From NCBI GenBank assembly GCA_963820525.1, contig CAWGAA010000001.1, positions 672,001 through 736,000 on the forward strand: a stretch of 64,000 nt of DNA, written 5' to 3'. How positions within the stretch are numbered: position 1 is the stretch's first letter; each line of letters opens with the position of its first letter. Of the stretch, positions 11,430 to 64,000 are shown piece by piece. Source of the DNA: an uncultured Spirochaetota bacterium (GTDB lineage Bacteria > Spirochaetota > Spirochaetia > SZUA-6 > Fen-1364). Both the position numbers and the translations under genes were made by a program. The notes under the pieces are model-generated. The model was not told where the DNA came from, ran no database searches, and was given only the letters and a program-made list of their open reading frames with translations.

Positions 11430-11484
11430 CGAACAACCCCAGCGGCAACTTTTCGATAAAACTCTATAATATAAATGTTATATC
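11430..11484 (+). other. Putative attI site, core GTTATAT at 11477-11483 (5' limit approximate)
   Basis: First G/TT crossover after intI with no attC hairpin before it. The following cassette matches the attC-preceded copies at 21971 and 34554 from TTATATCC onward. Confidence 0.75.
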
Positions 11485-11872
11485 CAATCTAGATTTATAT
11501 TGATTATCGAATAGGCAACGAATTAGTAATTCAATAAAAAGAGATAATACGTGTTTCAATAGCTTGTTTAACCATGATGGCGTTGGCATTGCTCTGGAAG
11601 GATGGCGGTGTTGTACTAATGTTGCTTGCTTGCTCTTAGTTTCAATACACTGCACGTCACCGTGGCTTAATGGTCAACGATTTCATTATAGGGCTCGGAT
11701 CAAGCTCTTTCTCTTGAAACAACAACTCTTTTCTGTTGTCCTCAACACCATCATACTGGATGGATATAACATGCTGTTGGAGTTGTCCGCCTAGGCTACG
11801 CGTCGTTACTTATAGCTACGTTTGCTAGGGTTCCTTCGGTTGCTGATTCGGGGCGGCAACTCAACAGCGTCG
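11478..11872 (+). repeat. ORF-less family A cassette, first position in array
   Basis: ATGATGGCGTTG...CAACACCATCAT element plus attC; near-identical to 21971 and 34554. Confidence 0.9.
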
Positions 11873-11878
11873 TTAGCT
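11764..11878 (+). repeat. attC site (first of 81 counted; several subtypes)
   Basis: R'' ATATAAC, arm GTTG(G)AGTTG(T)CCGCC pairing with GGCGGCAACTCAAC, R' GTTAGCT. Confidence 0.95.
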
Positions 11879-11959
11879 GCTTCTTTATTTCTTTTACACA
11901 TTTTCCTAGTCTGTATTGGCTTTATTTTCTAGATATGATTTAATATTTGTAGCATTACA

Positions 11960-12421
11960 ATGCCAACCTTTAGAAAGGCTACTATTTCCGATATCGAATC
12001 TCTAATTTCCTTGCGCTTATCTTTTATAAATGAACTACATAAAGATTCTCCTGCTACAGACATTTCTTTGGAAACGGATCTGCGATCCTATTTCTCACAG
12101 AATATTAAAAGCAATCAGTTTATCGCTTGGCTAGCTATTGAAAATGACCAGATTATTGCTACTAGCGGATTGACTTTCTATCTATTACCACCCAATTCCA
12201 AGAATCCATCTGGCAAAGTAGCGTATATAATGAATATGTACACCCTGCCACATTTTAGGAACAAAGGCATTGCAAATGAATTATTTAAAAGAATTATTAA
12301 AGAAGCTCAATCACTTGGATATACGGAGCTATGCCTTCATGCAACAGAAATGGCAATTGGTATATATAAGAAATATGGTTTTATTGAACCACATGATAAG
12401 GAGTTGATGAAATATATTTGA
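11960..12421 (+). CDS. GNAT N-acetyltransferase (cassette)
   Basis: AYIMNMYTLPHFRNKGIA acetyl-CoA motif, IYKKYGF. Confidence 0.92.
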   Translation: MPTFRKATISDIESLISLRLSFINELHKDSPATDISLETDLRSYFSQNIKSNQFIAWLAIENDQIIATSGLTFYLLPPNSKNPSGKVAYIMNMYTLPHFRNKGIANELFKRIIKEAQSLGYTELCLHATEMAIGIYKKYGFIEPHDKELMKYI

Positions 12422-12587
12422 AAATAAGTCGCAATCATTTCAGCAATAATAGAATTTATTAATGAATATTAAGAGAAGCAGCTAACATGTCGTTGCAGCT
12501 GACCGCCCAAGCTACGCGTCGTCACTTTATACTACGCGCACATACTCGTTTGCTTTTCCTAATGCGGGGCGGCAGCTGAACTCATTG

Positions 12588-14935
12588 TTATATCCATCTA
12601 AATTTATATTGATTAGTGAAGAAGCATCGGATTATTAATTCGATAATAATAAAAGACGTATTTCAATTGCCTATTTGCCTATGATGGCGTTGGCATTGCT
12701 CTGGAAGGATGGCTGTGTTGTACTACATTGCTTGCTTTTCTTTAGTTTCAGTACATGGCACGTCACCTCGGCTTGCCAACACCGATTGCATTCAACGGCT
12801 CGGATCAAGCTCCTTCAATTGATTAGATAGATCTTTTCTGCTTTCCTCAACGCCATCATACTGGATGGATATAACATGCTGTTGGAGTTGTCCGCCTAGG
12901 CTACGCATCGTTACTGATAGCTACGCGCGCTGAAGCATTTGTACTTGGATGATTCGGGGCGGCAACTCAACAGCGTCGTTATCTCCATCTAGATTTATAT
13001 TGATTAGTAAATAAGCAACCAATTATTAATTCAAGAATATTGGATAATACGTTTTTCAATAGCTTGCTTTCCCATGATGGCGTTGGCATTGAGCGGGAAG
13101 GATGGCTGTGTTGTACTAGTTTGCCTGCTTGTTTTTAGGTTCAATACACTGCGCGTCACCTTGGCTTATTGTCACCGATTACATTATAGGGCTCTGATCA
13201 AGCTCTTTTAATTGATTCGATTGCTCTTTTTCTGCATTCCTCAACGCCATCATACTGGATGGAGATAACATGTCGTTGCAGCTGACCGCCCAAGCTACGC
13301 ATCGTCACTTGAAACTACGCGCGCTCAGGTATTTCTTTTTTTTGAGGCGGGGCGGCAGCTGAACTCCTCGTTATCTCCATCTAGATTTATATTGATTAGC
13401 AATGAAGTTAAGAATTATTAATTAAATAATCTTGGATAAGACGCTTTTCAATTTCATGTTTGCCCATGATGGCGTTGGCCTTTCTCTGGAAGGATGGCGG
13501 TGTTGTACTAGGTTGCACGCTTGTTTTTAGTTTCAATGCATGGCACGTCACCTTGGCTTATTATCACCGATTACATTCAACGGCTCGAATCAAGCTCTTT
13601 CAATTGATTCGCTAGATCTTTTCTGCTTTCCTCAACGCCATCATACTGGATGGAGATAACATGTCGTTGCAGCTGACCGCCCAAGCTACGCGTCGTCACT
13701 TGAAACTATGCGTGCTCAGCTATTTCCTTTTTTTGAGGCGGGGCGGCAGCTGAACTCCTTGTTATATCCATCTAGATTTATATTAATTAGTGAAGAAGCA
13801 TAGGATTATTAATTCGAGAATAATAAAAGACGTTTTTCAATCGCTTATTTGCCTATGATGGCGTTGGCATTGCTCTGTAAGGATGGCGGTGTTGTACTAC
13901 ATTGCTTGCTTTTCTTTAGTTTCAATACTTTGCACGTCACCTCGGTTTGCCAACACCGATTACATTCAACGGCTCGGATCAAGCTCCTTCAATTGATTCG
14001 ATAGATCTTTTCTGCTTTCTTCAACGCCATCATACTGGATGGATATAACATGCTGTTGGAGTTGTCCGCCTAGGCTACGCGTCGTTACTGATAGCTACGC
14101 GCGCTGAAGCATTTGTACTTGTATGATTCGGGGCGGCAACTCAACAGCGTCGTTATATCCATCTCAATTTAAATTGATTATCAATAAAGCATTGAATTAT
14201 TAATTCAATAATATAGGATAAGACGCTTTTCAATTTCATATTTGCCCATGATGGCGTTGGTATTTGGCGGGAAGGTTGGCGGTGTTGTATTACCTTGCCT
14301 GCTTTTCTTTAGTTTCAATGTATGGCACGTCACCTTGGCTTATTGTCACCGATTACATTCTACGGCTCGGATCAAGCTCTTTCAATTGATTCGATAGATC
14401 TTTTCTGCTTTCCTCAACGCCATCATACTGGATGGATATAACCAGTCGTTGCAGCTGACCGCCTAGGCTACGCGGCGTTAGTGAAAACTACGCGTGCTCA
14501 ATCATCTGTTCTTTCCTGATTCGGGGCGGCAGCTGAACTCCATGTTATCTCCATCTAAATTTACTTTGATTAGCAATGAAGTAAGTAAATATTAATTCAA
14601 AGATCTTGTATAAGACGTTTTTCAATAGCTTGTTTGCCTATGATGGCGTTGGCATTGCTCTGCAAGGATGGCGGTGCTGTACTAGGTTGCATGCTTGTTT
14701 TTAGTTTCAATGCATGGCACGTCACCTTGGCTTATTATCACCGATTACATTCTACGGCTCGGATCAAGCTCTTTCAATTGATTCGCTAGATCTTTTCTGC
14801 TTTCCTCAACGCCATCATACTGGATGGAGATAACATGTCGTTGCAGCTGACCGCCCAAGCTACGCGTCGTTACCTGAAACTACGCGTGCTAAGGTATTTA
14901 ATTTTTTTGAGGCGGGGCGGCAGCTGAACTCCTTG
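12588..14935 (+). repeat. Six tandem family A cassettes (starts 12588, 12979, 13371, 13762, 14153, 14545)
   Basis: ~391 bp period, each with the ATGATGGCGTTG/CAACGCCATCAT IR and its own attC. Confidence 0.92.
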
Positions 14936-14964
14936 TTAGCCCGCATTGAGATGGTCAGGTAGAT

Positions 14965-15504
14965 ATGAAAGCAGCTATTCTCGAGTGGATAGTGTCAATC
15001 CTGATTGAACATAAGAGCTTACTCTCCATCGCGATCAAACAGCGTTCAAAGTTCGAAGGATGGCTGAAGTATGAACTTGCTAGTCGTATGCTAGCAAAGG
15101 GTGCAACTAGCATGGAGGTAGAAGCAGCGTATCCAAGTTCAAAAACCAGATCCGACATCCATCTGAAAATAAGTGGCAAGGACTACTACATTGAACTAAA
15201 AACAGCGAACACAAATTGGAACATTAAAGGCACTACGAAAAAGGCGAAACCCATTACGATGAATGTGAACGGAATCATTAAAGATATCGAGAAGCTACGG
15301 TCACTATGCGATAGAGGAATTAGTGCGTTCATCTTGTTTCCGGTTCCCCTTGAAAAAGAGAAGTATTGGAAGTACATGGAACGCATTTCAAAAGAAACCA
15401 ACATTGATTTGTCCAAAACGTTGAAGTTCAGAACAATGACGACAAGTCTTGGAGGCAAAGACAAGGCTGATATCCTTATCTGCGTCTTAGAGGTGTCCAA
15501 CTAG
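14965..15504 (+). CDS. Hypothetical protein, PD-(D/E)XK nuclease-like (cassette)
   Basis: FEGWLKYEL...EVEAAY...RSDIHL...YYIELK spacing fits a restriction-endonuclease fold. Confidence 0.6.
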   Translation: MKAAILEWIVSILIEHKSLLSIAIKQRSKFEGWLKYELASRMLAKGATSMEVEAAYPSSKTRSDIHLKISGKDYYIELKTANTNWNIKGTTKKAKPITMNVNGIIKDIEKLRSLCDRGISAFILFPVPLEKEKYWKYMERISKETNIDLSKTLKFRTMTTSLGGKDKADILICVLEVSN

Positions 15505-15763
15505 ACAGCAGCAGTATCGCTAGGATGACCATGATACGCAAATAGGGTCTACAGAGCTAGGAAAATAAAACGGGAAAGAACAGACAATTCGAAATAAGCG
15601 CAATGGGATAATCAGAAAGATGTCACGAAACCGCAAGGACAATAAAATCGGCTGCGGGCTAACAAGTCGTTGCAGCTGACGCCGGGAGTTCCAGCTGTTT
15701 CGATTGAGTTTGGTCTACCGTGGTCCTTCGGTTGCTGATTCGGCGGCGCAGCTGAACTCCATG

Positions 15764-16156
15764 TTATATCCAATCTAGATTTATATTGATTATCGAATAG
15801 GCAACGAATTAGTAATTCAATAAAAAGAGATAATACGTGTTTCAATAGCTTGTTTAACCATGATGGCGTTGGCATTGCTCTGGAAGGATGGCGGTGTTGT
15901 ACTACATTGCCTGCTTGTCTTTAGTTTCAAGGCATGGCACGCCACCTTGGCTTATTATCACTGATTACATTCTACGGCTTAGATCAAGCTCTTTCTCTTG
16001 AAACAACAACTCTTTTCTGTTGTCCTCAACGCCATCATACTGGATGGATATAACATGCTGTTGGAGTTGTCCGCCTAGGCTACGCGTCGTTACTTATAGC
16101 TACGTTTGCTAGGGTTCCTTCGGTTGCTGATTCGGGGCGGCAACTCAACAGCGTCG
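15764..16156 (+). repeat. Family A cassette (mosaic)
   Basis: Flanks match the 11478 type; the middle matches the 32909 type. Confidence 0.9.
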
Positions 16157-16271
16157 TTAGACGCGTATAGGCTATCGTTCGAGTGTCTTTTTTCCATAAC
16201 CTTGAGCAAATGCTTGATAATCTACAATCAAGTCTTTCGTAAATAATTTATTTGCACCTGGAAATTGTTTC

Positions 16272-16808
16272 ATGCATATAACTCTCATGAGACACTTCAA
16301 AGTTCAATATCATTGGAAACCCTCTTATACTTCCGATGAATATGCTTCAGCAGATGCGGAATACGACAATGCAGATGTAATTGACCAACAAATACATCTT
16401 TCCAAAGAATATACAATGATTTTCGTAAGTACTTTAAGGCGGACTCAACAGACATTATACTATTTGTTTGGAAATGTTCCTTTTAAACAAACAAACCTAT
16501 TAGATGAAGTTCGGCTAGCTCCTTTTATGTATTCTAGAATCCGTCTCCCTCTTCTTATGTGGCTTATCATGGGTAGAATACAATGGTTCTTAAATATTAA
16601 ACGCCAACCAGAGGCCAGAACAGATACTATAAGAAGAGCCGAAGATTTTATAAAGACGATAAAAGCGCTAAATGGAAATGTATTAATTATAGGTCATGGC
16701 TTCTTCCTAAGAGTACTGGCGAGTAAGATTATTGGAATGGGATTTGTAGGAAAGGCTTTCGATTATTTACATAATGGTGAATATCATACATATTATTTCA
16801 AATCCTGA
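16272..16808 (+). CDS. Histidine phosphatase / phosphoglycerate mutase family (cassette)
   Basis: ITLMRHF, VSTLRRTQQT, LLDEV, VLIIGHG. Confidence 0.8.
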   Translation: MHITLMRHFKVQYHWKPSYTSDEYASADAEYDNADVIDQQIHLSKEYTMIFVSTLRRTQQTLYYLFGNVPFKQTNLLDEVRLAPFMYSRIRLPLLMWLIMGRIQWFLNIKRQPEARTDTIRRAEDFIKTIKALNGNVLIIGHGFFLRVLASKIIGMGFVGKAFDYLHNGEYHTYYFKS

Positions 16809-16975
16809 AAAATATTAAATACTTAAGACTCTTTTAGAAGCTTTATATTGTTTATAATTCTTATACGCGTCTAACAAGTCGTTGCAGTTGACCGCCTAAG
16901 TTACGTTTCTTTACTTGAGACTATGTTTGCTAAGTTCCTTCGGTTGCTGATTCGGGGCGGCAACTGAACTCCATG

Positions 16976-17414
16976 TTATATTCACGCATATTGAAGATTC
17001 TTAGATAATTTCAGTATTAGTTCCCTGTATACGTATGCTTGAGTATTGCTATCATAAAGGGCTTTTTTCCTATTTGAGTAATGTTGTGAGATTCACCTCT
17101 TTCATTTCTTTTCTTTCCTTTGCGCGGGCCCTGGTAGTCACTAGGTCAAAGCTCGCGCCACTCTTTTGGTGGCCTCTCTTACCTTTTAACCTTGTTTTCT
17201 TTCGTTCAAGGTTGAAGTCTAGATTCAACCTGTTGCGGTCAGCTTTTTTCACTCTCTTATAGTTCTCTGCATCGGCCCGCGCTAGTCTCTTATGTTTCCG
17301 CGTAAATATAACAAGTCGTTGCAGCTGACCGCCTAGGCTACGCGTCGTTAGAAATAACTACGCTCGTTCAAGTATTTGTTCTTTCTTGATTCGGGGCGGC
17401 AGCTGAACTCCATG
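16976..17414 (+). repeat. ORF-less family C cassette (divergent relative of B)
   Basis: GCGCGGGCC 17122-17130 / GGCCCGCGC 17274-17282, AGCTCGCGCC motif; near-identical copy at 38700. Confidence 0.88.
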
Positions 17415-17447
17415 TTATCCGTTCATCAGAAAGGTGGTAACAAAATA

Positions 17448-18110
17448 ATGGCAATTGCTCAAGTTGTTCTTGAATATATCAAGATATTGATATGGCCCCT
17501 AAGTGTCTTTATTTTCGTAATTATCTTCCGCATTCCACTTATAGAATTCCTTAGAAAAGTTCGTCACGCTGATCTTCCAGGTGGGTTGTCGCTTGATCTA
17601 CAAGAAAATATTCTTGAAGCTAAAGAGCTATCGCGAAAAGTTCAGAAAGAATATCACCAACAAGATGATACTCAAAAGCCATCTATTCCATTAACAGAAG
17701 CCAATGCTAGAATAATTCAATTGGGCCTTATGCCCTCTCCAAGTGGCCTTGATATGAATTATTACCGTGCACTAGCAAATCAGGATCCAACACTGGCATT
17801 AGCTGGACTAAGAATTGAAATTGAAATATTGGCAAAGAACCTTGCAAAAGGATTTAAGGTTACTATCAGAACCAATGATTCAGGACATATTTTACTTAGG
17901 AAATTGGCAGATAGTGGCGCTATAACACAAAACCAATTTCGCCTTGCCGAAAGAGTATTGCAATTATGCAATATTGCAATTCACGGTCAATTTGTTTCAC
18001 TTGAACAGACTGATAAAATACTCGAAATATCAGATATCTTAGCAGAGCAATATATTTCTTGGCTTAGCTGGGGGTTTAGCGATAATTGGAAGCTAATGAA
18101 TGAAAAATAA
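17448..18110 (+). CDS. Hypothetical protein, N-terminal TM helix and HEPN/DUF4145-like C-terminus (cassette)
   Basis: Hydrophobic ILIWPLSVFIFVIIF; LRIEIE...LLRKL...LCNIAIHG; start moved to the ATG after AGGTGG. Confidence 0.6.
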   Translation: MAIAQVVLEYIKILIWPLSVFIFVIIFRIPLIEFLRKVRHADLPGGLSLDLQENILEAKELSRKVQKEYHQQDDTQKPSIPLTEANARIIQLGLMPSPSGLDMNYYRALANQDPTLALAGLRIEIEILAKNLAKGFKVTIRTNDSGHILLRKLADSGAITQNQFRLAERVLQLCNIAIHGQFVSLEQTDKILEISDILAEQYISWLSWGFSDNWKLMNEK

Positions 18111-18251
18111 CCAAAGTGATACATATTTTATCTTACATGAACGGATAACAAGTCGTTGCAGCTGACCGCCTAGGCTACGTTTCGTTGCAGCCAACTACGC
18201 TTACTAAAGTATCTGTTCTTTCTTGATTCGGGGCGGCAGCTGAACTCCATG

Positions 18252-19428
18252 TTATATCCATCTAGATTTATATTGATTAGCAAATAAGCAACGAATTATT
18301 AATTCAATAATAGAATATAATACGCTTTTCAATAGCTTTTTTGCCCATGATGGCGTTGGCATTGTTCTGGAAGGATGGCGGTGTTGTACTACATTGGTTG
18401 CTTGTTTTTAGTTTCAATGTATGGCACGTCACCTTGGCTTATTGTCACCGATTACATTCAACGGCTCGTATCAAGCTCTTTCAATTGATTCGATAGATCT
18501 CTTCTGCTTTCCTCAACGCCATCATACTGGATGGACATAACATGCGGTTGGAGTTGTCCGCCTAGGTTACGCGTCGTTACCGATTGTTACGCTTGCTATG
18601 GTTCCTTCGGTTGCTGATTCGGGGCGGCAACTCAACCGCGTCGTTATCTCCATCTAGATTTATATTGATTAGCAAATAAGCAACGAATTATCAATTCAAG
18701 AATATTTGATAAGACGTTTTTCAATATTTTGCTTTCCCATGATGGCGTTGGCATTGGGCGGGAAGGATGGCGGTGTTGTACTAGTTTGCCTGCTTGTTTT
18801 TAGGTTCAACACACTGCGCGTCACCTTGGCTTATTGTCACCGATTACACTATTGGGCTCGGATCAAGCTCCTTTAATTGATTCGATTGCTCTTTTTCTGC
18901 TTTCCTCAACGCCATCATACCGGATGGAGATAACATGTCGTTGCAGCTGACCGCCCAAGCTACGCGCCGTTATTCGAAACTACGCGCGCTCAGGTATTTC
19001 CTCTTTTTGAGGCGGGGCGGCAGCTGAACTCCTTGTTATATCCATCTAGATTTATATTGAGTAGCAAATAAGCAACGAATCATTAATTCAATAATAGAAT
19101 ATAAGACGCTTTTCAATGGCTTTTTTGCCCATGATGGCGTTGGCATTGTTCTGGAAGGATGGCGGTGTTGTACTACATTTGGTTGCTTGTTTTTAGTTTC
19201 AATGTATGGCACGTCACCTTGGCTTATTGTCACCGATTACATTCGACGGCTCGTATCTAGCTCTTTCAATTGATTCGATAGATCTTTTCTGCTTTCCTCA
19301 ACTCCATCATACTGGATGGACATAACATGCGGTTGGAGTTGTCCGCCTAGGTTACGCGTCGTTACTGATTGTTACGCTTGCTATGGTTCCTTCGGTTGCT
19401 GATTCGGGGCGGCAACTCAACCGCGTCG
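18252..19428 (+). repeat. Three tandem family A cassettes (18252, 18644, 19036)
   Basis: Family A IR and motifs, each followed by attC. Confidence 0.92.
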
Positions 19429-19464
19429 TTAGACGGCAAAAGTTTTAAATAATAGAGGTGCAAT

Positions 19465-20196
19465 ATGATTACTGAATTCCCTAAGAACATTCATGACAAG
19501 CTGAAAACCTATGTCTACTTATATATTGATCCAAGAGATAATAGCATATTCTATGTAGGAAAAGGTGTCGGTAATCGTGCTTTTTCTCATCTAAAAGATT
19601 TTTCTGAAACATAAAAGTCTGAACGTATCCAAGAAATTACCCAACATGGCTCATGTCCAAGAATCGAAATATTAATCCACGGCCTTGATGATGAAACGGC
19701 AAAGAGGGTTGAAGCTTCGTTAATCGATTTGCTTGGAATTGATACTTTATTAAATCAAGTTAGAGGATACCAATCAAAAGAGTATGGCAGAATGTCACCA
19801 GAACAATTAATCGCAGTCTATGACGTGGAAAAGGTTGAAATAGAAGAACCCTCGATACTTATAACTATCAATAAATCCTTTCACTACGGAATGCAGCCTA
19901 TTGAACTATATGATGCAACCAGATCAGCGTGGGTTATTGGTGAAAGGAAACGTGCCGCAAAATATGCATTAGCTGTCTATTCGGGAGTTGTTCAAGAAGT
20001 TTATGAAATTAAGGATTGGTACCCATCACATTCTACTTTCAATACAAAAAACTATGAAGATGAAATTGAATCAAATGAGGATAGATGGGAATTTGTAGGA
20101 AAATTAGCTGACAATAAAATTAGAAATAAATATAAATTTAAAAATGTATCTGAATATGTTGGAGCTCAGAACCCTATAAAATATGTAAAATGCTAG
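19465..20196 (+). pseudogene. GIY-YIG (LEM-3-like) nuclease with premature TAA at 19612-19614 (cassette)
   Basis: ATG 19465 after [34 protein letters not shown]...SET*KSERI...VEASLID, in frame with ORF 19729..20196. Confidence 0.85.
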
Positions 20197-20315
20197 ATTT
20201 GCCGTCTAACATGCTGTTGGAGTTGACCCCTGGAATTTCAATTTGAACTGCTGCTTGCTTCTCGGACTCTACTGTAGCTTGGCCCTTCGGGCGGCGGGGC
20301 AACTCAACAGCGTTG

Positions 20316-20737
20316 TTACATCCACGCTAATAATTTCTTTGAGAGAATATTTTGCCTATTCTGTTTTGAATTATTCAAAGCAAATAAAGAATTCGATTTA
20401 GCAATCTTGCAGGTTTTACTTTGTTGAATTCCTCTGATACTTTTGCGCGGGCCATGTAAGTTCCCATTGGAACAGCTTGCGCCCATTAGCTGAAAGGGCA
20501 TCATCAACTTTTAACATCATTTTCTTTCGCTATGCCCGAATTCTATCATCAATCAACTAACCTTATATTTTCTTCATATCGTGAAGCTTCTTTGCTGGCC
20601 CGCGCATATTGTTCTGTTTCCGCGTAGATGTAACATGCGGTTGGAGCAGACCGCTTGGACTACGCGTCGTTACTGATTGCTACGCAAGTTAAAGTAATTG
20701 TACCTGTATGATACGGCGCGGCTGCTCAACCGCGTCG
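20316..20737 (+). repeat. ORF-less family B cassette
   Basis: TGCGCGGGCCA 20444-20454 / TGGCCCGCGCA 20596-20606 IR plus attC. Confidence 0.92.
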
Positions 20738-20783
20738 TTATGACGCCCAAATTTTCAGTAGCTTGAATTGCTAATCTGATGAC

Positions 20784-20839
20784 TTGACTTCATGCCTATT
20801 GATCGATAAGATTATAGTTGTACGTAGAACTTATCGATC
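20784..20839 (+). promoter_or_regulatory. Putative TA promoter and operator
   Basis: TTGACT-N17-TAAGAT overlapped by the IR GATCGATAAG / CTTATCGATC (20801-20839). Confidence 0.6.
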
Positions 20840-20849
20840 GGAGGCTACT

Positions 20850-51978: not shown

Positions 51979-52014
51979 TTACGCGCTCATAAATTAAACA
52001 CATTGTGAAAATAG

Positions 52015-54567: not shown

Positions 54568-55786
54568 TTATATCCAATCTAGATTTATATTGATTATCGA
54601 ATAGGCAACGAATTATTAATTCAATAAAAAGAGATAATACGTGTTTCAATAGCTTGTTTAACCATGATGGCGTTGGCATTTCTCTGGAAGGATGGCGGTG
54701 TTGTACTAATGTTGCTTGCTTGCTCTTAGTTTCAATACACTGCACGTCACCGTGGCTTAATGGTCAACGATTTCATTATAGGGCTCGGATCAAGCTCTTT
54801 CGATTGATTCGATAGATCTTTTTCTGTTTTCCTCAACGCCATCATACTGGATGGATATAACATGCTGTTGGAGTTGTCCGCCTAGGCTACGCGTCGTGAC
54901 AAAAAGCTACGCGCGGCAAAGCCTTTTGTACTTGGATTATTCGGGGCGGCAACTCAACAGCGTCGTTATATCCACGCTAAAGAAATTCTTTGTGAGAATA
55001 TTTTGCTTCTTCTGTTTTGAATTACTCAAAGCAAATGAAGAATTCTCTTTCACAATCTTGCGGGTTTTACCTTGTTGAATTCTTTTGATACCTGTGCGCG
55101 GGCCATCTACGTTCCTGTTGGAACAGCTCGCGCATGTTAGCAAAAGGGGCATTAATTACCTTTTTTAGCATCACTTTCTTTCGCTTTTCCTGAATTCTAT
55201 CATCAATCAACTAACCTGATATTTTATCCATATCGTGAAGCTTGTCCTTCGGCCCGCGCATATTGGTCTGTTTCCGCGTAGATATAACATGCTGTTGGAG
55301 TTGACCGCCTAGGCTACGCTTCATTACCAATAGCTACGGGCGGTAAAGCATTTTGTACTTGGATGATTCGGGGCGGCAACTCAACAGCGTCGTTATATCC
55401 ATCTAGATTTATATTGATTAGCAAATAAGCAACGAATTATTAATTCAAGAATAGAATATAAGAAGCTTTTCAATAGCTTTATTTCCCATGATGGCGTTGG
55501 CATTGTTCTGGAAGGATGGTGGTGTTGTACTAGTTTGCCTGCTTGTTTTTAGTTTCAAGGCATGGCGCGTCACCTTGCCTTATTATCACCGATTACATTC
55601 TACGGCTCAGATCAAGCTCTTTCAATTGATTCGATAGATCTTTTCTGCCTTCCTCAACGCCATCATACTGGATGGACATAACATGCGGTTGGAGTTGACC
55701 GCCCAGGCTACGCTCCGTGACTTATTGTTATGCGCGCTAGAGTCTTTTGTTCTTGGATGATTCGGGGCGGCAACTCAACAGCGTCG
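54568..55786 (+). repeat. Run of ORF-less cassettes: A 54568, B2 54966, A 55393
   Basis: Family IRs and attCs. Confidence 0.9.
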
Positions 55787-55966
55787 TTAGCTCCCCTCTG
55801 AAATGCACTTTATTTATTTTCCTTAATGATTTTTCATATTAATGGCTTTCAAACATAATGTGGGCTATGTTATTCGTATTGCAGTAGTCCTTTCTATTCC
55901 CGTCCTAATTTATGTTTGACAAATTGGTATTATTTGTCAACATTTTACTAATGTAAGGAGAGAACA

Positions 55967-56272
55967 ATGGCAGACTACACTTTTGATGGCAAAGCCTTAA
56001 GGAAAAGCACTGGACAAAAAATGGGAGAGGTTGATAGAACCTCTATAAGATCTTGGAATAGTGCTCGGCTTGGTGAAATTCAGGGTAAGAATATTCGTGA
56101 TGCTCATGGCAAAAAGGTTTTGGAATTTGATGGCAAGAATGTAAAGGATGACATGGGCAAGAAACTTATGACAATTCAAGATATTCAAAAGATTATAGAT
56201 GGAGAAGCTGGAATATCTTTAGTCGCAGCATGGTACTTTTTAGTTAAGAGTCAGCAATCGAATATGACATAA
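55967..56272 (+). CDS. Small hypothetical protein with ~15-aa internal repeats (cassette)
   Basis: AAGGAG RBS; repeats DGKALRKSTGQKMGE / QGKNIRDAHGKKVLE / DGKNVKDDMGKKL. Confidence 0.75.
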   Translation: MADYTFDGKALRKSTGQKMGEVDRTSIRSWNSARLGEIQGKNIRDAHGKKVLEFDGKNVKDDMGKKLMTIQDIQKIIDGEAGISLVAAWYFLVKSQQSNMT

Positions 56273-56739
56273 ATTGTAGAAAATAAGGTCCGACCTTACC
56301 GATTTGATGGAATCTTCATTTACTTTCCTCATAACCTCTCGGTGCTTACAGAAGGTAGACGTCTCGCTGCAACCCTGAGAGTTCTCCTGTTGAAAGACAT
56401 CTTTCCGTTTTATACACATAAACCATGATGAAATAGTTCAAAGACTATAGCCCTGTTTTAGCAAAACATATTATGAATAAAGTAAAATAAATATATAAAG
56501 AAAAAAGGGGAGCTAACATGCTGTTGGAGTTGTCCGCCTAGGCTACGCTTCGTTACCAGTAGCTACGCTAGCTGAAGTCTTTGTACTTGGATGATTCGGG
56601 GCGGCAACTCAACAGCGTCGTTATGTTGTCATAAAGCGAGCGCGTCAGTGATGACGAATTTAGCGAGTGACGGAGGCATTACGAACACTGCAGAATGCCG
56701 TAAGATGTCTTGAGGTGGATCCATAGAAAGGACTCTCCA

Positions 56740-57324
56740 ATGAGCAAGGTGCTGCTAATTGATTACGAAAACGTTCAGGGGATTAACCTTGGGCAGATAG
56801 TAGGAACGGACTATAGAGTGTGTATATTCACTGGAAGTTCTCAAAGTAAGATACCAATTGACCTAGTCAGTTCCACTCAGGCCTTGGGCAATAGACTGGA
56901 ATGGATCAGAATTGATGGCAATGGACCGAATGCACTGGACTTTCACATTGCATATTACCTCGGTTCGCATATCGCTAAGTTTCCTAGCAATGAGTACTTT
57001 GTATTGTCCAAGGACAAGGGATTTGATCCTTTGATGAAACACATTGCAAAGGAGAATTTGACCTGCAAGAGAATAACAAATATATCGGAACTCCTCTCAA
57101 ACAAAAAAGTAAAGGGGCCAGATGGAGACTATGAAAAAGTACTTTTGAACTTAAAGAAGATTGAGAAAAGCAAACGACCCAAGAATACAAAGACCCTCAA
57201 GCAGCATATGAAAACGATAGTTGGTAGAACTCAAACTGAGGATAGACTCAATCGCATAGTTGAACAACTCTTCGCTTCTAAGGTGATAATTGAACAAGAC
57301 GGCAGACTGATGTACAAGACTTGA
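56740..57324 (+). CDS. PIN/NYN-like domain protein (cassette)
   Basis: LLIDYENVQ, GPNALDFHIAYYLG, LSKDKGFDPL. Confidence 0.85.
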   Translation: MSKVLLIDYENVQGINLGQIVGTDYRVCIFTGSSQSKIPIDLVSSTQALGNRLEWIRIDGNGPNALDFHIAYYLGSHIAKFPSNEYFVLSKDKGFDPLMKHIAKENLTCKRITNISELLSNKKVKGPDGDYEKVLLNLKKIEKSKRPKNTKTLKQHMKTIVGRTQTEDRLNRIVEQLFASKVIIEQDGRLMYKT

Positions 57325-57486
57325 CAACATAACATGCTGTTGGAGTTGACCGCCTAGGCTACGCTTCGTGACTCATAACTACGCGCGGTAAAGCCTTTTG
57401 TACTTGGATGATTCGGGGCGGCAACTCAACAGCGTCGTTATGCGTGTCTGTGAAACTAACCTAGCCTGAAGTAAGTGAGGCACCTA

Positions 57487-58458
57487 ATGTATCCCTATGA
57501 AGATCTCGGGAAAATCCTCTCAAGGCAACTGAAGGCAATGTCAGCTATCCCAGACTTGTCGAAATCATTGCAGCTCCTAAGGCAGCCCTTACTTCCGAAC
57601 GGCTTGATAGAGGCTGTAAAGGCAATTAGCTCCCAAAACATGTCATCAATCTTCAAGCTTTCCCAAGATATGAACCGCATTACTGGCATTACATCCGGAT
57701 TGTACCAGACCTTTGCCAGAATGAACTGGCCCGCCGTCCAAACAGCAATCGCTTTGAGAGACTTCTATTCGCCATCCTTCAAAGCCATAGAAGCAATCCA
57801 AAAGAGTATTGCCTCTACCGCGTTTCCCTTGATCTCGATGAATGAGGTTAGAAGCTTATCAGGCGCGGCCAACATCTACAAGGACTTAGCGTCGGCTGCA
57901 GACTTGGCAGCAAATTCCCACAGTTTCATCCACGAAGAATTGGCCACGATAAGCGAAGTCGAAGATTTCAGTGACGATGCTGAGGTTGAAGAAGGATTCA
58001 GAAAGATAGAGACGTCCATCGTAGAACAGATTCGGAAGACACCTGCTATCCGAATATCTTTCGAAGGATGGGTTAGCCTGCTGCTTACGCTGTTCATCTT
58101 TCTCTATGGAAAGATATCATCAGATGAATTCCAAGCGCGAATTGAAGCTAAGGCCGATTCGCTCGAAAGGCTTGACAACAGGATTATAGAGTCACAGAAG
58201 AAGATATACGATGCCTTGGTTCAGCACATGATCAGCAGTGAGGCAGGGGGAACTGCATACGTTGTTACAAGGGAAGTAACCCTAAGAGCAAGACCATCAT
58301 CAAGAGCACAGGCCGTTGCGCGTTTATTTCCAAATCAGATCTTAAAACTTGATTCCCGAAAAGGAAAATGGATTCGCGTAACCTTTTTCGACTACGTTGC
58401 TGCCAGTGTTCGGACCGGATGGGTCCTCAAGAAATATACCAAACGAATAGCCAAATAG
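57487..58458 (+). CDS. Hypothetical protein with TM helix and C-terminal bacterial SH3 domain (cassette)
   Basis: WVSLLLTLFIFLY; VTLRARPSS...GKWIRV...GWV..KY. Confidence 0.75.
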   Translation: MYPYEDLGKILSRQLKAMSAIPDLSKSLQLLRQPLLPNGLIEAVKAISSQNMSSIFKLSQDMNRITGITSGLYQTFARMNWPAVQTAIALRDFYSPSFKAIEAIQKSIASTAFPLISMNEVRSLSGAANIYKDLASAADLAANSHSFIHEELATISEVEDFSDDAEVEEGFRKIETSIVEQIRKTPAIRISFEGWVSLLLTLFIFLYGKISSDEFQARIEAKADSLERLDNRIIESQKKIYDALVQHMISSEAGGTAYVVTREVTLRARPSSRAQAVARLFPNQILKLDSRKGKWIRVTFFDYVAASVRTGWVLKKYTKRIAK

Positions 58459-58576
58459 GATCTGAGACACGCATAACAAGTCGTTGAAGCCGACGCCTTA
58501 ACTTCAGACTGTTTCGTAGAGACTTCTTCCGCAATGCTTCACAAGGTCTGATTCGGCGGCGCGGCTTAACTCTATG

Positions 58577-58968
58577 TTATCTCCATCTAGATTTATAGTG
58601 ATTAGCAAATAAGCAACGAATTATTAATTCAAGAATATTGGATAAGACGTTTTTTAATAGCTTGCTTTCCCATGATGGCGTTGGCATTGAGCGGGAAGGA
58701 TGGCTGTGTTGTACTAGTTTGCCTGCTTGTTTTTAGGTTCAATACACTGCTCGTCACCTTGGCTTATTGTCACCGATTACATTATAGGGCTCGGATCAAG
58801 CTCTTTTAATTGATTCGATTGCTCTTTTTCTGTTTTCCTCAACGCCATCATACTGGATGGAGATAACATGTCGTTGCAGCTGACCGCCCAAGCTACGCGC
58901 CTTTACTTGAAACTACGCGTGCTCAGGTATTTCCTTTTCTTGAGGCGGGGCGGCAGCTGAACTCCTCG
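58577..58968 (+). repeat. Family A cassette
   Basis: Family A IR and motifs. Confidence 0.92.
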
Positions 58969-59193
58969 TTATATCCACGCTAAAGAAATTCTTTGGGAGA
59001 ATGTTCTGCTTCTTCTGTTTTGAATTACTCAAAGCAAATTAAGAATTCTATTTCGCAATCTTGCAGGTTTTACCTTGTTGAATTCTTCTGATACCTTTGC
59101 GCGGGCGTAACCGTCAAATAAACCCCACCTTGCGGCCGGCATAAAAAGCCGCGATCCTGAGCCCACTCAATTCAGGGAATCAGGAGGCCGTAG

Positions 59194-59535
59194 ATGGAGT
59201 CAAGACAGGAGAATCGAAAACAACCACGCAGAAACGCAGAGAAATGGAGCGAGCTCATCACCGCGTGGCGATCAAGCGGGAAGACGAGAAAGGCATGGTG
59301 CCAGGAACAAGGGATACCCTACGAATCCCTGAGGCGATGGGTGAAGCGATTGCGCGGCTCCGCCGACGGATTGTCATTTGTAGGAATCCGCGACACATCC
59401 CAAGCCCTGGATGCTGCGGAGCAGGCGCGCGTGAGAGTAAGCAGAGATGGAGATATTGAACTGTATGGAAACATCGGCGAGGAGCTTCTGCGCAGAGTGC
59501 TGCGCGTGATGCGGGAGACGGCTGATGTTCATTGA
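59194..59535 (+). CDS. tnpA: IS66 accessory protein TnpA
   Basis: W.ELI..WRSSG.TRKAWC.EQGI....LRRW HTH; position in the element. Confidence 0.88.
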   Translation: MESRQENRKQPRRNAEKWSELITAWRSSGKTRKAWCQEQGIPYESLRRWVKRLRGSADGLSFVGIRDTSQALDAAEQARVRVSRDGDIELYGNIGEELLRRVLRVMRETADVH

Positions 59536-59872
59536 ATGGAGCAACGTCAAGATATTTGTTCGTCCGGGCGCGACGGATTTGAGAAAACAGATAAACGGAC
59601 TGGCCATCCTGGTACAGACGGCGATGGGCAAAGATCCGCTTTCCGGACACCTCTACCTTTTCAGCAATCATGAGAAACGTCTCCTGAAGGTCCTGTACTG
59701 GGATCGAAACGGGTTCTGCATGTGGCAGAAAAGGCTGGAGCGGGATCGCTTCCCCTGGCCAAGAACGGAAGAGGCAGCGCGGGAGATCAGCTTGGAGCAG
59801 CTTCGGATGCTGCTTTCGGGAATCGACTTCTGGAACGCGCACCAGAGCCTCGCGTATACCGCGGTCGTATAA
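59525..59872 (+). CDS. tnpB: IS66 accessory protein TnpB
   Basis: TDLRKQINGL, LYLFSN, KVLYWDRNGF..W.KRLE..RFPWP. Confidence 0.93.
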   Translation: MFIEWSNVKIFVRPGATDLRKQINGLAILVQTAMGKDPLSGHLYLFSNHEKRLLKVLYWDRNGFCMWQKRLERDRFPWPRTEEAAREISLEQLRMLLSGIDFWNAHQSLAYTAVV

Positions 59873-59911
59873 AAACATCTAGATTTTAAGGCCCCATCAT
59901 GGTATTCTCAT

Positions 59912-61558
59912 GTGGTGAACGAAAAACTGGGAGAACTACCGAACAACGTCGAACAGCTGCACGAGCTGGTTCGACGGATTGTCAGGGAGCACGATGAAGA
60001 GCTCGCTCGACTGCAGGCCGAGTTGGAGAAGGAGCGCAGCGAACGAATCGAGCACCAAAACAAGGCCATAGAGCATTTCGAAGAGCTGCAGCTTCTGCGG
60101 CGCAAGCTCTTTGGCCGCAGCGCCGAGAAGCTATCCGAGGAGGAGCAAAAGCAGCTTCTTCTTTTCAACGAGGCGGAGGATATCGTATTCAGCCAACAAC
60201 AGGAGCCTGCCGCCGAGGAGCGCATTGAGGTAAGGGCGCACACGCGGGTGAAGCGGGGCAGAAAGCCGCTGCCGCCTGAGCTTCCCCGTGTGGAGATGGT
60301 CCACGACATAAGTGAAGAAGACAAGAAATGTGCCTGCGGACAGGAGCTTACACGTATCGGAGAGGAAAGCCTCGAGAAACTTGAGGTCATCCCGCCCCAG
60401 ATACGGGTACGGCGGCACCTGAGACCCCAGTACGCCTGCAAGGCCTGCGAAGGCTCCGGGGATGAGGACCGTCCCGCGGTGCGGATCGCCCCGGCGGTGA
60501 GGCAGCTTCTTCCCAAGAGCATCGCCTCACCGGCACTGGTGGCCTACATAATGACGGCGAAGTTCTGCGACGCCCTGCCGTTCTACCGCCAAGAGAAGCA
60601 GTTTCAGCGCATCGGAGTAGATATCAGCCGCCAGGACATGGCCAACTGGAGCATCGCGGTATTCCATAGGCTTGCGCCGGTTATCGAGCTACTTCGAGCA
60701 GAGATTCGAAGAGGCCCGCATGTAGGAATCGACGAGACGACCCTTCAGGTGATGGGGGAGCCGGATCGCCCCAATACTTCAAAGTCGTATATGTGGGTGT
60801 TCCTGGGAGGCAGTCCGAAAAGACCCGTGGTTGAGTTTCAGTATCATCCCACACGATCCGGTAAGGTTCCCCTTGAGGCTCTGCGGGGTTACAACGGCTT
60901 CATCCAGACTGATGGCTATGACGGATATAACGAAGTGGGAAGCCAACCCGGAGTCATTCACGCGACCTGTTGGGCGCACTCGCGTAGAAAGTTCTTCGAG
61001 GCCAAGGAGGCATCCAAGCAGGCGGGAAGTGTCGATGAGGCCCTGGCACGAATCGATGCTCTGTTCAGGATCGAGCGGACCTTAAGAGCTCAAGAGCTTT
61101 CACCGCAGGAGTTCGTCCGCCAACGGCGAGAGCAGGCCGAACCCGTGTTGGAAAAGCTCAAGGCGTGGCTTCACAAGCGTCAGGGGCAGGTTCCCCCGTC
61201 TCTGCTTCTGGGCAAAGCGATCGCCTACACCATCGAGCAGTGGCCCAAGATGATTCGGTACCTGGACAGTCCCGATTTGGGTCCGAGTAATAACGCGGTC
61301 GAGCAGGCGATACGGCCGTTTGTGGTGGGAAGAAAAAATTGGATGCTATCTGGGAGCCCCGCGGGCGCCGAAGCCAGTGCGGGGTGGTACAGTATCATCG
61401 AGACGGCCAAACTGAACGGCGTGGAGCCCTACCTATATCTTCGCTACATTCTCTCGCGGCTTCCTGAGAGCGACAACCCTGAGGATTATCGTGAGCTGCT
61501 TCCCTGGAATGTTCCACGCGAGTCTCTGCTGAACTTTGATTCCGGTCATTTGTTCTGA
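59912..61558 (+). CDS. tnpC: IS66 DDE transposase TnpC
   Basis: LFGRSAEK, zinc finger, LPFYRQ, IDET, QTDGY, CWAHSRRKF, NNAVEQAIRP.VVGRKNW. Confidence 0.95.
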   Translation: MVNEKLGELPNNVEQLHELVRRIVREHDEELARLQAELEKERSERIEHQNKAIEHFEELQLLRRKLFGRSAEKLSEEEQKQLLLFNEAEDIVFSQQQEPAAEERIEVRAHTRVKRGRKPLPPELPRVEMVHDISEEDKKCACGQELTRIGEESLEKLEVIPPQIRVRRHLRPQYACKACEGSGDEDRPAVRIAPAVRQLLPKSIASPALVAYIMTAKFCDALPFYRQEKQFQRIGVDISRQDMANWSIAVFHRLAPVIELLRAEIRRGPHVGIDETTLQVMGEPDRPNTSKSYMWVFLGGSPKRPVVEFQYHPTRSGKVPLEALRGYNGFIQTDGYDGYNEVGSQPGVIHATCWAHSRRKFFEAKEASKQAGSVDEALARIDALFRIERTLRAQELSPQEFVRQRREQAEPVLEKLKAWLHKRQGQVPPSLLLGKAIAYTIEQWPKMIRYLDSPDLGPSNNAVEQAIRPFVVGRKNWMLSGSPAGAEASAGWYSIIETAKLNGVEPYLYLRYILSRLPESDNPEDYRELLPWNVPRESLLNFDSGHLF

Positions 61559-61997
61559 ATAAAGCAGGAGCGCACCCCCTCGGCGTCCGAATTCAGGGGT
61601 GGGGTTTATTTGACGGTTACGCGCGGGCCATCTACGTTCCTGTTGGAACAGCTCGCGCACGTTAGCTAAAGGGGCATTAATTACCTTTTTTAGCATCACT
61701 TTCTTTCGCTTTGCTTGAATTCTATCATCAATCAACTAACCTGATATTTGCTCCATATCGTTAGGCTTGTCTTTTGGCCCGCGCATATTGGTCTGTTTCC
61801 GCGTAGATATAACATGCTGTTGGAGTTGACCGCCTAGGCTACGCGTCGTTACTTATAGCTACGCGTATTAAAGCTCTTGTACTTGGATGATTCGGGGCGG
61901 CAACTCAACAGCGTCGTTAGATTTCTTAAAGATAGAGAAACTATTTGCTGACCACAAATGCTGTTAGAAACGCTCGTCGCTTTCCTGTGGAGATAGC

Positions 61998-62744
61998 ATG
62001 ATAGTCAAATTTCTTGGAACTGGTGGTTTTATCAACAGAGGAATACCATACAATTCCTTCCTGATTGATAATGTCCACCTTATCGAAGCTCCACCAGACC
62101 TTATGATTTCCCTATATAATAATGGAATACATTGTCACCAGCTCAATAGTATTTTTCTCTCTCACTTTCATGGTGACCATTATTTCGGAATGCCTTTCTT
62201 CATCCTAAATCTGTTCAATTATTACCTTGAATATGATAAGCCAATCAAAAGGATTAATCTAATTGGCCCAAAAGGTATTAGAGACAATATAATTGAGTTA
62301 CAGAAGGTTGCGGTTGCTCCAGACAATCCATCTGTTTCCTGGATAGACGACGTATTTGATTTCGTTGAAATCGATCAATTCTTTAAAGTTCAATTTAGCG
62401 ATTCAAGCGAAATGATCTTTCACCGAATGAACCATACCATGGAAACATACGGCTTTTCCATTATAGATCAGGGCAAGTATAAACTCACTTATTTGGCTGA
62501 CACTAAATGGGATGCTTCCTTCAGTCAGATTTTATTGAAAAAGCCTCAAGTTGTTATTTGTGACCTCAACAGTAACTCTTTTGATAAAATAAAAGCACAT
62601 ATGTCGGAATCTGATATTATCGAGAAGGCTATGCGTATAACTGGAAAGGATACTCAATATATAGGAACACACTTAAGAGATAATCAATCCATTGATAGAG
62701 AGAATCTTCAGTATGCCCAAACGGGAAAAGAATATCAAATATAA
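61998..62744 (+). CDS. MBL-fold metallo-hydrolase (RNase Z-like) (cassette)
   Basis: FLGTGG, SHFHGDH, H..ETYG, YLADT, H, TH. Confidence 0.88.
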   Translation: MIVKFLGTGGFINRGIPYNSFLIDNVHLIEAPPDLMISLYNNGIHCHQLNSIFLSHFHGDHYFGMPFFILNLFNYYLEYDKPIKRINLIGPKGIRDNIIELQKVAVAPDNPSVSWIDDVFDFVEIDQFFKVQFSDSSEMIFHRMNHTMETYGFSIIDQGKYKLTYLADTKWDASFSQILLKKPQVVICDLNSNSFDKIKAHMSESDIIEKAMRITGKDTQYIGTHLRDNQSIDRENLQYAQTGKEYQI

Positions 62745-62985
62745 GAAATCTAACATGCTGTTGGAGTTGACCGCCTAGGCTACGCGTCGTGACAAAAAGC
62801 TACGCGCGGCAAAGCCTTTTGTACTTGTATGATTCGGGGCGGCAACTCAACAGCGTCGTTATATGCCATTTTTCCTATAGGCCTTCTTTTGCTCTCCTTG
62901 GCATTATATTTTTCACTACTAGTCTGCCTTTAAGGTTTTTCTTTGAAAAGTGCCAAATTCGTACAGTTCTTTGGAGATTATATCG

Positions 62986-63615
62986 ATGGGTGAACATGCA
63001 ACACTGATAAAATTTGGCGATAGCCAGCATCTTTTAGAGCTACAAGAAGATGGTCTTCTGTATATGAATAATCTTCCATATTTCTGGCATATAGAGGATA
63101 GCTTCCTTCGCGGAGATTCAGAAGATAGTGTTGCTGAAGTCCATAGAGGATCTATCGGATCTGTAACATTTAACGATGGCACAGTATTGAACATTTCTGA
63201 TTGGAACCTGCTACTACCTCCATCTTACCCAGAAAAGATTAACATTTTCTGCATGTATGCATTACGTCCTTTTGCCTATAGTTTTCCTGTCAATGAACAA
63301 AACTACATGTTCGGAGATACCGCACTAGTTCTGCTACAGCCTCAAGAATTCATAAATAGGATACATTCCTTTCTCCAAGACAGGAGTATTCCGCATCACG
63401 CAGCCTTGGTAGCATATGTAAATACTGATAACCAAGGTAGAATGGGCCCATTTGTTAAACGAAATAATTTCATCTATCAATCTGAATGGAGATTGGTTTG
63501 CTATGAAGGTCCGGGCAATGCACGAACTGACATCAGAATTGGAAGCATAAGAGATATTTCCAAAATCATCCCTAGCAAAGAAATCAATAATCAAATTAAG
63601 ATAAATGGCATATAA
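62986..63615 (+). CDS. Hypothetical protein, homologous to 52015..52707 (cassette)
   Basis: Shared motifs as above; start after GGAG; stop overlaps R''. Confidence 0.75.
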   Translation: MGEHATLIKFGDSQHLLELQEDGLLYMNNLPYFWHIEDSFLRGDSEDSVAEVHRGSIGSVTFNDGTVLNISDWNLLLPPSYPEKINIFCMYALRPFAYSFPVNEQNYMFGDTALVLLQPQEFINRIHSFLQDRSIPHHAALVAYVNTDNQGRMGPFVKRNNFIYQSEWRLVCYEGPGNARTDIRIGSIRDISKIIPSKEINNQIKINGI

Positions 63616-63720
63616 CATGCTGTTGGAGCAGACCGCTTAAGCTACGCTTCGTTACCAATGACTACGCGCGGCAAAGCCTATTGTATTTAGCTGATGCGGC
63701 GCGGCTGCTCAACAGCGTCG

Positions 63721-64000
63721 TTACATCCACGCTAATAATTTCTTTGATAGAATATTTTGCCTGTTCTGTTTTGAATTATTCAAAGCAAATAAAGAATTCG
63801 ATTTAGCAATCTTGCAGGTTTTACTTTGGTGAATTCCTCTGATACTTTTGCGCGGGCCATGTAAGTTCCCATTGGAACAGCTCGCGCCCATTAGCTGAAA
63901 GGGCATCATCAACTTTTAACATCATTTTCTTTCGCTATGCCCGAATTCTATCATCAATCAATTAACCTTATATTTTCTTCATATCGTGAAGCTTCTTTGC
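63721..64000 (+). repeat. Family B cassette, cut by window end
   Basis: Near-identical to the start of 20316. Confidence 0.9.

Follow-up and report, generated by a model that had tools for sequence, protein, structure and literature searches.

We analyzed a 64,000-nt stretch of the genome of an uncultured Spirochaetota bacterium (GCA_963820525.1, contig CAWGAA010000001.1, positions 672,001 to 736,000; hereafter the window), which holds the start of a chromosomal integron array crowded with two families of short, gene-less cassettes, A and B. The genome amounts to 5.05 Mb in 4 contigs, with zero N and ~60% GC. The first 10 kb of the window are core genome (58-65% GC), and from ~11.4 kb onward the GC content falls to ~43%. 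At this border the integrase gene intI encodes the Pfam domains Phage_integrase and Phage_int_SAM_4, and its product scores 410 bits against NCBIfam TIGR02249 "integron integrase" (cut-off 265). A predicted integron-type tyrosine recombinase therefore adjoins an attI region followed by many attC-ended cassettes in a single orientation, i.e. the arrangement that defines a sedentary chromosomal integron. No attC was found to the left of attI, and a minus-strand promoter-like site within the attI region (11433-11405) points at intI.

To delimit the cassettes, 55 attC sites of the window were turned into a profile and searched with nhmmer, which gave 82 matches in the window. The array region has 179, and every match is on the plus strand. 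The whole array spans contig C1:683,478-824,370 and comprises 175 cassettes over ~141 kb. The first 10-14 bases of each cassette can pair with the flank of its own R'' box by complementarity, and cassette borders were therefore placed where canonical integrons have them, between the G and the TT of the R' box on the right. The attC stem has two extra unpaired bases, which read G and T on the ORF-sense strand (ORF, open reading frame), i.e. C and A on the bottom strand (e.g. 12871-12983); in described attC sites, G and T sit on the bottom strand.

Clustering of the genome's cassettes yields 61 copies of family A (388-398 bp), 31 of family B (418-427 bp), and 5 of a B subtype, B2 (439-440 bp), which together account for 97 of the 175 cassettes (55% of the array). 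In the window, calls by size and alignment give 36 intact A, 12 B, and 2 B2, and cassettes without a conserved ORF make up 50 to 52 of 81 (62-64%). An earlier note on this DNA had counted 37 A, 14 B, 2 C, and 1 D. The A figure holds once a cassette with a long leader insert (35746-36701) is added to the intact copies, and the B figure equals our B and B2 together; its D is probably the 272-bp cassette at 44958-45229, and we could not match its two C cassettes to any of ours.

Local alignment scores between A and B fall under the shuffled mean (z -1.2 to -0.1), while B and B2 align with z 8. On this basis A and B are unrelated, with no sign of shared ancestry, and B2 is a divergent relative of B. 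Both families nonetheless share one layout, consisting of an AT-rich leader (27-28% GC), two GC-rich arms of an inverted repeat ~150 nt apart (ATGATGGCGTTG/CAACGCCATCAT in A and GCGCGGGCC/GGCCCGCGC in B), a short tail, and attC. The earlier note had described the two families in these terms, as unrelated in sequence but built alike, and had placed an A cassette first after attI; all three points agree with our results (Table 1).

Conserved arms in otherwise drifting cassettes

Parsimony changes per column, counted on maximum-likelihood trees of the unique copies, differ sharply along the cassettes. In family A the arms undergo 0.21 changes per column, compared with 1.91 in the interior and 3.2 in the leader, and in family B the corresponding values are 0.17, 1.21, and 1.52. 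The arms thus change ~10 times less often than the rest of the cassette and are its least variable stretches, which bears out the earlier observation that they barely change while leader and interior diverge. Composition-matched draws (20,000) point the same way: the A arms show 5 changes against a mean of 60 and a minimum of 15, and the B arms 3 changes against a mean of 30.4 and a minimum of 13. The constancy of the arms is not due to their GC richness, because outside the arms it is the G/C columns that change faster: in the leaders and interiors of A and B they do so at 1.1 to 2.5 times the rate of A/T columns. Together with the difference in GC content between the array and the genome (~43% and ~60%), this suggests that cassette DNA drifts towards AT. 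Other well-kept stretches are AGCTCGCGC and TTTCCGCGT in B, and those of A include GGATGGCGGTGTTGTACT.

The few substitutions that do occur in the arms are strand-biased. All 8 hit a G of the plus strand (4 G>A, 3 G>T, and 1 G>C), although the arms hold equal numbers of C and G, and singletons across the cassettes, with G>A 20 and C>T 19, do not favor one strand in general. As the four transitions are all G>A on the plus strand, a G-T wobble would be kept only if the minus (bottom) strand folds, and the pattern is a weak hint that the bottom strand is the folding one.

Copies confined to one array

Searches of the genome with blastn return 67 A and 36 B matches (7 more with a B2 query), all on the plus strand of C1:683-825 kb, and no A or B copy was found outside the array in the 5.05 Mb genome. 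The 61 A copies represent 45 distinct sequences, and cassettes that are 100% identical form 21 groups. Both neighbors differ in 25 of 26 identical A pairs and in 7 of 8 identical B pairs; identical copies with differing neighbors argue for the movement of single cassettes and against segmental duplication.

Outside this genome, A was not found in 60 relatives, B was not found in 91 other genomes of the order, and neither matched anything in plasmid and phage collections. Similarly, a scan for the A arm pattern in one genome of each of 185,579 species gave one chance match only, in a hydrolase gene of a Gemmatimonadaceae metagenome-assembled genome. The integrase is present in 42 of the 91 other genomes of the order, and the arrays of relatives match the same attC profile, with ordinary attC spacings, of at least 579 bp, in 10 stretches fetched beside integrases; two of these 10 have no attC match and several stop at contig ends. 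Mini-cassettes may have been lost from the short-read assemblies of these relatives.

Metagenomes do contain the families. Four metagenome runs, which come from three studies, contain short contigs identical or near-identical to A and B, and these contigs reach into other cassettes with joints at cassette borders, although the short sides of these joints (21-30 nt) make them hints only. A scan of metagenomes for the arm pattern recovered one contig, a Joint Genome Institute (JGI) contig from a close relative, which is the sole other carrier found. This contig joins an ORF cassette, an A copy (97% identity), and the start of a B2 copy through attC sites; its ORF cassette is 90% identical to one that lies 76 kb from that A copy in the present genome. 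A related population thus holds the families in another order, which speaks against an assembly artefact.

Such an artefact would have been conceivable, given that the genome looks metagenome-derived (its best holders are sediment and wetland metagenomes) and that arrays of 390-440 bp repeats are hard to assemble. The 45 distinct A sequences, however, lie between varied unique neighbors, the assembly consists of 4 contigs with zero N, and runs of other studies independently yield exact or near-exact A and B contigs that reach other cassettes, in addition to the JGI contig with its attC joints. We therefore consider it extremely improbable that the repeats are artefactual, and treat the exact order and number of copies in the array, as assembled, as putative.

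Overall, many paralogues lie in one array, with homologues found only in metagenome contigs, and the expansion of A and B would accordingly be lineage-specific. A second integron-type integrase, 48% identical to the first and with six attC matches alongside, lies outside the window at C1:1954225-1963776, and contig C2:539459-541699 holds a small attC cluster without an integrase. No A or B copies were found at either locus.

Promoter, RNA, and coding potential of the cassettes

Of 42 unique A copies, 19 have a sigma-70-like site (TTGAAA, 17 nt, TAGAAT or TATAAT) at the same position of the minus strand. Minus-strand promoter-like sites as a whole occur in 22 of the 42, compared with 14.7 ± 2.6 in shuffles, while sense-strand matches are depleted in both families (A, 0 of 42 against 15 ± 3.1; B, 1 of 23 against 8.2 ± 2.6); all of these counts overstate significance because the copies are related by descent.

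These sites bear on the possibility that A and B are promoter cassettes like the gene-less ones of Vibrio and Treponema, in which the AT-rich DNA would drive downstream cassettes, or antisense transcription would silence upstream cassettes or raise intI expression from the first position. There is precedent for this, as Blanco et al. 2024 (PMC11014356) report sense promoter activity for most of 30 gene-less Vibrio cassettes, and a review (PMC8876359) gives the proposal that ORF-less cassettes increase integrase expression through antisense promoters. Leaders of 27-28% GC in a 60% GC genome and the excess of minus-strand sites in A also agree with such a role. The depletion of sense-strand matches, overstated by descent as it is, does not, and the first-position A copy has no consensus match at the recurrent site; moreover, promoters would leave both the invariant arms and the tandem runs of up to six A copies unexplained. 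The consensus scan itself decides little either way, because the authors of the Vibrio study hold that such promoters cannot be called in silico (Blanco et al. 2024). The described promoter cassettes (Blanco et al. 2024, PMC11014356; Tansirichaiya et al. 2019, PMC6557892) resemble A and B in being short, gene-less members of arrays, with AT-rich DNA that is active on the sense or antisense strand and alters the expression of neighbors. They differ in being 491-666 bp long and mostly single or few-copy, and their activity was measured, whereas A and B were assessed by consensus scan only. On balance, we find a promoter function unlikely to be what A and B are about.

The earlier note had favored diversified structured RNAs. 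Under this explanation A and B would be structured noncoding RNAs of ~175 nt with a regulatory, decoy, or defence role, closed by the inverted repeat and stored and diversified by the integron. Several observations suit it: the arms and several interior blocks are constrained, two unrelated families share one layout, the sigma-70-like site recurs at one place on the minus strand of A, and a cassette-borne small RNA, sRNA-Xcc1, is known in Xanthomonas (reviewed in PMC8876359). Specific signs of an RNA did not emerge, however. Rfam 15 (4227 families) gives zero matches at gathering scores in the whole window, and none in A or B at E up to 5 in the region 11400-24500, where only an unrelated snoRNA model is hit outside both families. 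Although sRNA-Xcc1 also is a noncoding product on an integron cassette, A and B thus match no Rfam family at the thresholds tried, with the presence of sRNA-Xcc1 among the scanned families unconfirmed.

The stability of the predicted folds appears to come from the arms only. Cores with arms are more stable than dinucleotide shuffles (z -2.4 to -4.2), while interiors without arms show no such excess of stability, whichever strand is folded (z -0.15 to -0.5; both comparisons used 12 unique copies of each family). The RNAalifold covariation terms are -0.09 kcal/mol for A (42 unique cores) and -0.32 kcal/mol for B/B2 (24 unique cores), with one pair per family showing changes on both sides. In the A alignment the covariation score of 0.041 equals that of shuffles (0.040) and is reached by 79 of 500 shuffles, and no compensatory changes were found in the arms, where 8 of 8 substitutions are uncompensated. 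Compensatory changes backing a fold were therefore not seen, in a test of low power because the copies are ~89% identical and most pairs never vary. In addition, the recurrent minus-strand site lies inside the element, such that a transcript starting there would not span both arms. A search for trans targets found 44 15-mers in common with the rest of the genome, compared with roughly 64 expected by chance (our own estimate). With no Rfam match, interiors that fold like shuffles, and covariation at the level of shuffles, the structured-RNA proposal appears unsupported rather than refuted, and we rate it as rather improbable.

Family A does have an ORF, which begins at ATGATG within the left arm. 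It extends to at least 45 amino acids in 26 of 42 unique copies and is cut to 21-40 amino acids by frameshifts or stops in the other 16. The ratio of nonsynonymous to synonymous polymorphism (pN/pS) is 0.94, the third codon position is the least variable, and a scan of the A alignment found, the attC flank aside, no gap-free block in which the frame is both free of stops and constrained. The B copies have no ORF that all of them share, and the arm present in both B and B2 would be read in a different frame in each. Thus, neither family has a conserved ORF, nor any ORF under purifying selection, and both lack a conserved coding frame as expected of noncoding paralogous cassettes. The A ORF (135-153 bp) falls right at the edge of the 150-bp limit applied by Boucher et al.

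We also considered A as a type I toxin-antitoxin-like module or small-peptide gene with a partly hydrophobic ORF of 45-51 amino acids. Here, the right arm would mask the start codon by long-range pairing, and an antisense RNA would arise from the minus-strand promoter-like site. The geometry is suggestive: the start codons lie within the left arm, the right arm lies just beyond the stop codon, and the antisense promoter-like site falls within the A ORF. The ORF is open in the majority of copies, and toxin-antitoxin cassettes (PIN/MazE, Gp49/HTH) are common in the array. What is absent is a conserved small hydrophobic toxin ORF, as indicated by the near-neutral pN/pS, the third codon position being the least variable, the 16 shortened copies, and the lack of any gap-free block with both low pN/pS and an open frame. 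Upstream of the ATG, a reading of the sequence shows nothing like a Shine-Dalgarno motif, and B has no ORF at the equivalent place, with frames that differ between B and B2. This makes a toxin or peptide function very unlikely.

Orientation relative to replication

The array lies on a replication arm whose direction is suggested by several signals. The cumulative GC skew reaches its minimum at the dnaA gene (C1:2.617 Mb) and its maximum at 0.22 Mb. Between those points the skew is negative in 74 of 112 intervals, compared with 12 of 40 elsewhere (P = 1.7e-7), and the rRNA operon of the same arm lies on the minus strand. Gene-strand bias computed from long ORFs was uninformative in this GC-rich genome. 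From the skew, the position of dnaA, and the strand of the rRNA operon, replication forks should cross the array from right to left, i.e. against the direction of the cassettes. The minus strand, canonically assigned as the bottom strand of attC, would then be on the lagging-strand template.

According to Loot et al. 2017 (PMC5371416), 25 of 30 chromosomal integrons have the opposite orientation to the lagging-template one, and lagging-template arrays had at most 22 cassettes. The same study reports that excision is more frequent in the lagging-template orientation and falls with cassette length. If the strand assignment holds, and within the limits of a four-contig assembly, the present array of 175 cassettes would be an outlier whose orientation favors the shortest cassettes.

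Proposed integrase-driven spread of A and B

In our best reading, A and B behave like self-propagating, non-autonomous passengers of the integron. Specifically, we give a probability of about one half to the view that A and B, with B2 and one shortened relative, are non-autonomous noncoding mini-cassettes that IntI mobilizes and that have multiplied in one array. This was the alternative offered by the earlier note, as selfish mini-cassettes amplified by the integrase, and it fits the evidence: copies occur in the array only, identical copies have differing neighbors, an A copy is first after attI, the families were not found in relatives, and strong conservation is seen only in the arms and attC. 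The first-position A copy sits at attI, where new cassettes integrate, and would reflect a recent integration; the pattern of conserved arms and attC around a drifting body could be described as transposon-like.

Under this scenario, the integrase would mobilize A and B one cassette at a time. The GC-rich arms and attC, nearly invariant, would act in cis during copying, while leader and interior drift. Both the small size of the cassettes and the orientation of the array, with the recombining bottom strand on the lagging-strand template, would favor excision, and excision followed by re-insertion into a sister chromosome would raise the copy number. On single-stranded DNA the arms might assist, for instance if they clamp the body and thereby bring the two flanking attC sites near each other; this is the weakest step of the scheme.

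A number of points weigh against integrase-driven spread, or at least against parts of it. Neither an excised circle nor a polymorphic attI junction was seen, and mobility is deduced from the arrangement of the copies; what the arms would do in recombination is conjecture. An A copy with a mutant right arm, CAACTCCATCAT, occurs twice between different neighbors, which means that the arms need not be strictly intact. In several interior blocks conservation comes close to that of the arms, which may point to a host function or an RNA. Insertion at attI alone cannot account for identical copies deep in the array, and the argument from orientation presupposes the canonical bottom-strand assignment and an assembly of four contigs. 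In minimum free energy, the attC sites of A and B differ only marginally from those of other cassettes (P = 0.017), a difference to which we attach no weight; the constraint on R-box pairing was too strict for B. Lastly, selfish spread and a benefit to the host, e.g. through promoters, are not mutually exclusive.

A further step would be to regard the arms, with repeated partner motifs in body and tail, as a new cis-acting aid to IntI recombination of single-stranded DNA. A and B would then be true integron parasites, the cassette counterpart of miniature inverted-repeat transposable elements (MITEs), and their spread would have been enabled by the lagging-template orientation. We propose this stronger version tentatively, and judge it rather unlikely.

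Cassette coordinates and other array content

The coordinates of the array features in the window are collected in Table 1. Among the atypical members, the gene-less cassette at 44958-45229 has GCGGGCC and GGCCCGC ~57 nt apart as well as CTCGCG and TTCCGC motifs (read from sequence), and the leader insert of the cassette at 35746-36701 holds several inverted repeats of 10-16 nt (35824-36331).

Table 1. Integron features in the window (bracketed numbers give the copies in a run)
Feature	Position	Strand	Details
Integron integrase gene intI	10089..11324	-	411-amino-acid ORF; family match = residues 99-411
attI region	11400..11479	+	crossover GTT 11477-11479; crossover G 11477; cassette 1 from 11478; read from sequence
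81 complete cassettes	11478..63720	+	attC profile and cassette table; partial 82nd after
First cassette after attI, family A	11478..11872	+	one base (right arm) off a five-copy identical group
Representative A cassette	12979..13370	+	leader 12979-13073, left arm 13074-13085, interior 13086-13241, right arm 13242-13253, tail 13254-13264, attC from 13265
Other intact A cassettes	12588-12978, 13371-14935 (4), 15764-16156, 18252-19428 (3), 21580-22365 (2), 32127-33299 (3), 34163-34948 (2), 37124-38699 (4), 40176-40568, 41939-43111 (3), 43534-43921, 46936-47329, 47757-48147, 49269-49660, 50797-51978 (3), 54568-54965, 55393-55786, 58577-58968		
Representative B cassette	23640..24065	+	left arm 23769-23777, right arm 23924-23932, attC from 23958
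Other B cassettes	20316-20737, 22366-22792, 24066-24488, 36702-37123, 40569-40990, 43112-43533, 46517-46935, 47330-47756, 52822-53665 (2), 54966-55392		
B2 cassette	16976..17414	+	B's arms, at 17122-17130 and 17274-17282; second window copy 38700-39138
Gene-less 272-bp cassette, shortened B-like core	44958..45229	+	longest ORF 45 amino acids
A cassette with GC-rich leader insert of ~565 bp	35746..36701	+	A arms 36406-36417, 36573-36584
Cassette with B-like start	58969..61916	+	carries IS66-family transposase gene 59912-61555
Start of 82nd cassette	63721..64000	+	B copy cut by window end

The remaining cassettes look like ordinary array content, including GNAT acetyltransferases, PIN/MazE and Gp49/HTH toxin-antitoxin pairs, hydrolases, methyltransferases, and several insertion sequence (IS) elements. 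Toxin-antitoxin-type cassettes are spread through the array, as in Vibrio superintegrons, for example at 20784-21427 (MazE with PIN), 28265-28902 (Gp49 with an HTH protein), and 33550-33903 (a lone PIN). IS elements are many, including those at 25435-26898 (minus strand) and 59912-61555 (plus strand) and at loci L032:8110-9123 and L033:12791-14194 (both minus strand). A 338-amino-acid transposase with HTH_38 and rve domains is present in eight copies on the minus strand of the array, and further IS genes comprise several DDE_Tnp_1_4 transposases, the IS66 gene in a B-type cassette, one IS110-family gene, and one IS1595-family gene.

Relation to known cassette systems

Large families of gene-less cassettes have been known from Vibrio since 2006. 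Boucher et al. 2006 (PMC1382264) report that, in Vibrio arrays of 36-219 cassettes, noncoding cassettes account for 6-49%, that their attC sites are normal, and that they are strongly paralogous, with one family reaching 45 copies in V. vulnificus CMCP6 and 34 in YJ016. Homologues were found only in related hosts, and the proposed explanations were selfish elements, or promoters and RNA. The background given in the earlier note named noncoding cassettes as a precedent but understated how large a share of an array (up to 49%) such families had been shown to take. Because large paralogous noncoding families were described then, A and B belong to a known kind: they too are gene-less and paralogous, fill an array, and have homologues in close relatives only.

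The differences lie in the host, the sequences, and the arms. The carrier is not a Vibrio but a bacterium of ~60% GC, the cassette sequences are unrelated to those of Vibrio, and there are two mutually unrelated families (61 and 36 copies, 55% of the array). The array has an apparent lagging-template orientation, and the body of both A and B is closed by a constrained inverted repeat, a feature that the available text of PMC1382264 does not mention; this comparison concerns the published description. In the open-access literature, we found no description of a constrained, body-closing inverted repeat in noncoding cassettes.

MITEs offer another parallel, as they also are short and noncoding, keep terminal inverted repeats while the interior drifts, and depend on an enzyme encoded elsewhere. 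The mobility of A and B would proceed via attC and IntI, however, and not via a transposase. An identity with or origin from MITEs was considered and rejected: all copies lie within the array, target-site duplications are not apparent, the arm sequences are not shared by any IS of the genome, and extended arm motifs are absent elsewhere in the genome.

These findings extend the Vibrio observation of highly paralogous noncoding cassettes to an unrelated, uncultured lineage of sediments and wetlands, and suggest that gene-less passengers recur in very large integrons. Two aspects go beyond the published descriptions we found. One is the ~10-fold constancy of the arms in two unrelated families, and the other is an array that has reached 175 cassettes in what appears to be the orientation in which experiments find excision to be frequent and dependent on length. 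Should a cis effect of the arms on recombination be borne out, they would provide a simple handle for tuning cassette mobility, and would bear on a question asked since 2006, i.e. whether such cassettes are selfish or useful to their host.

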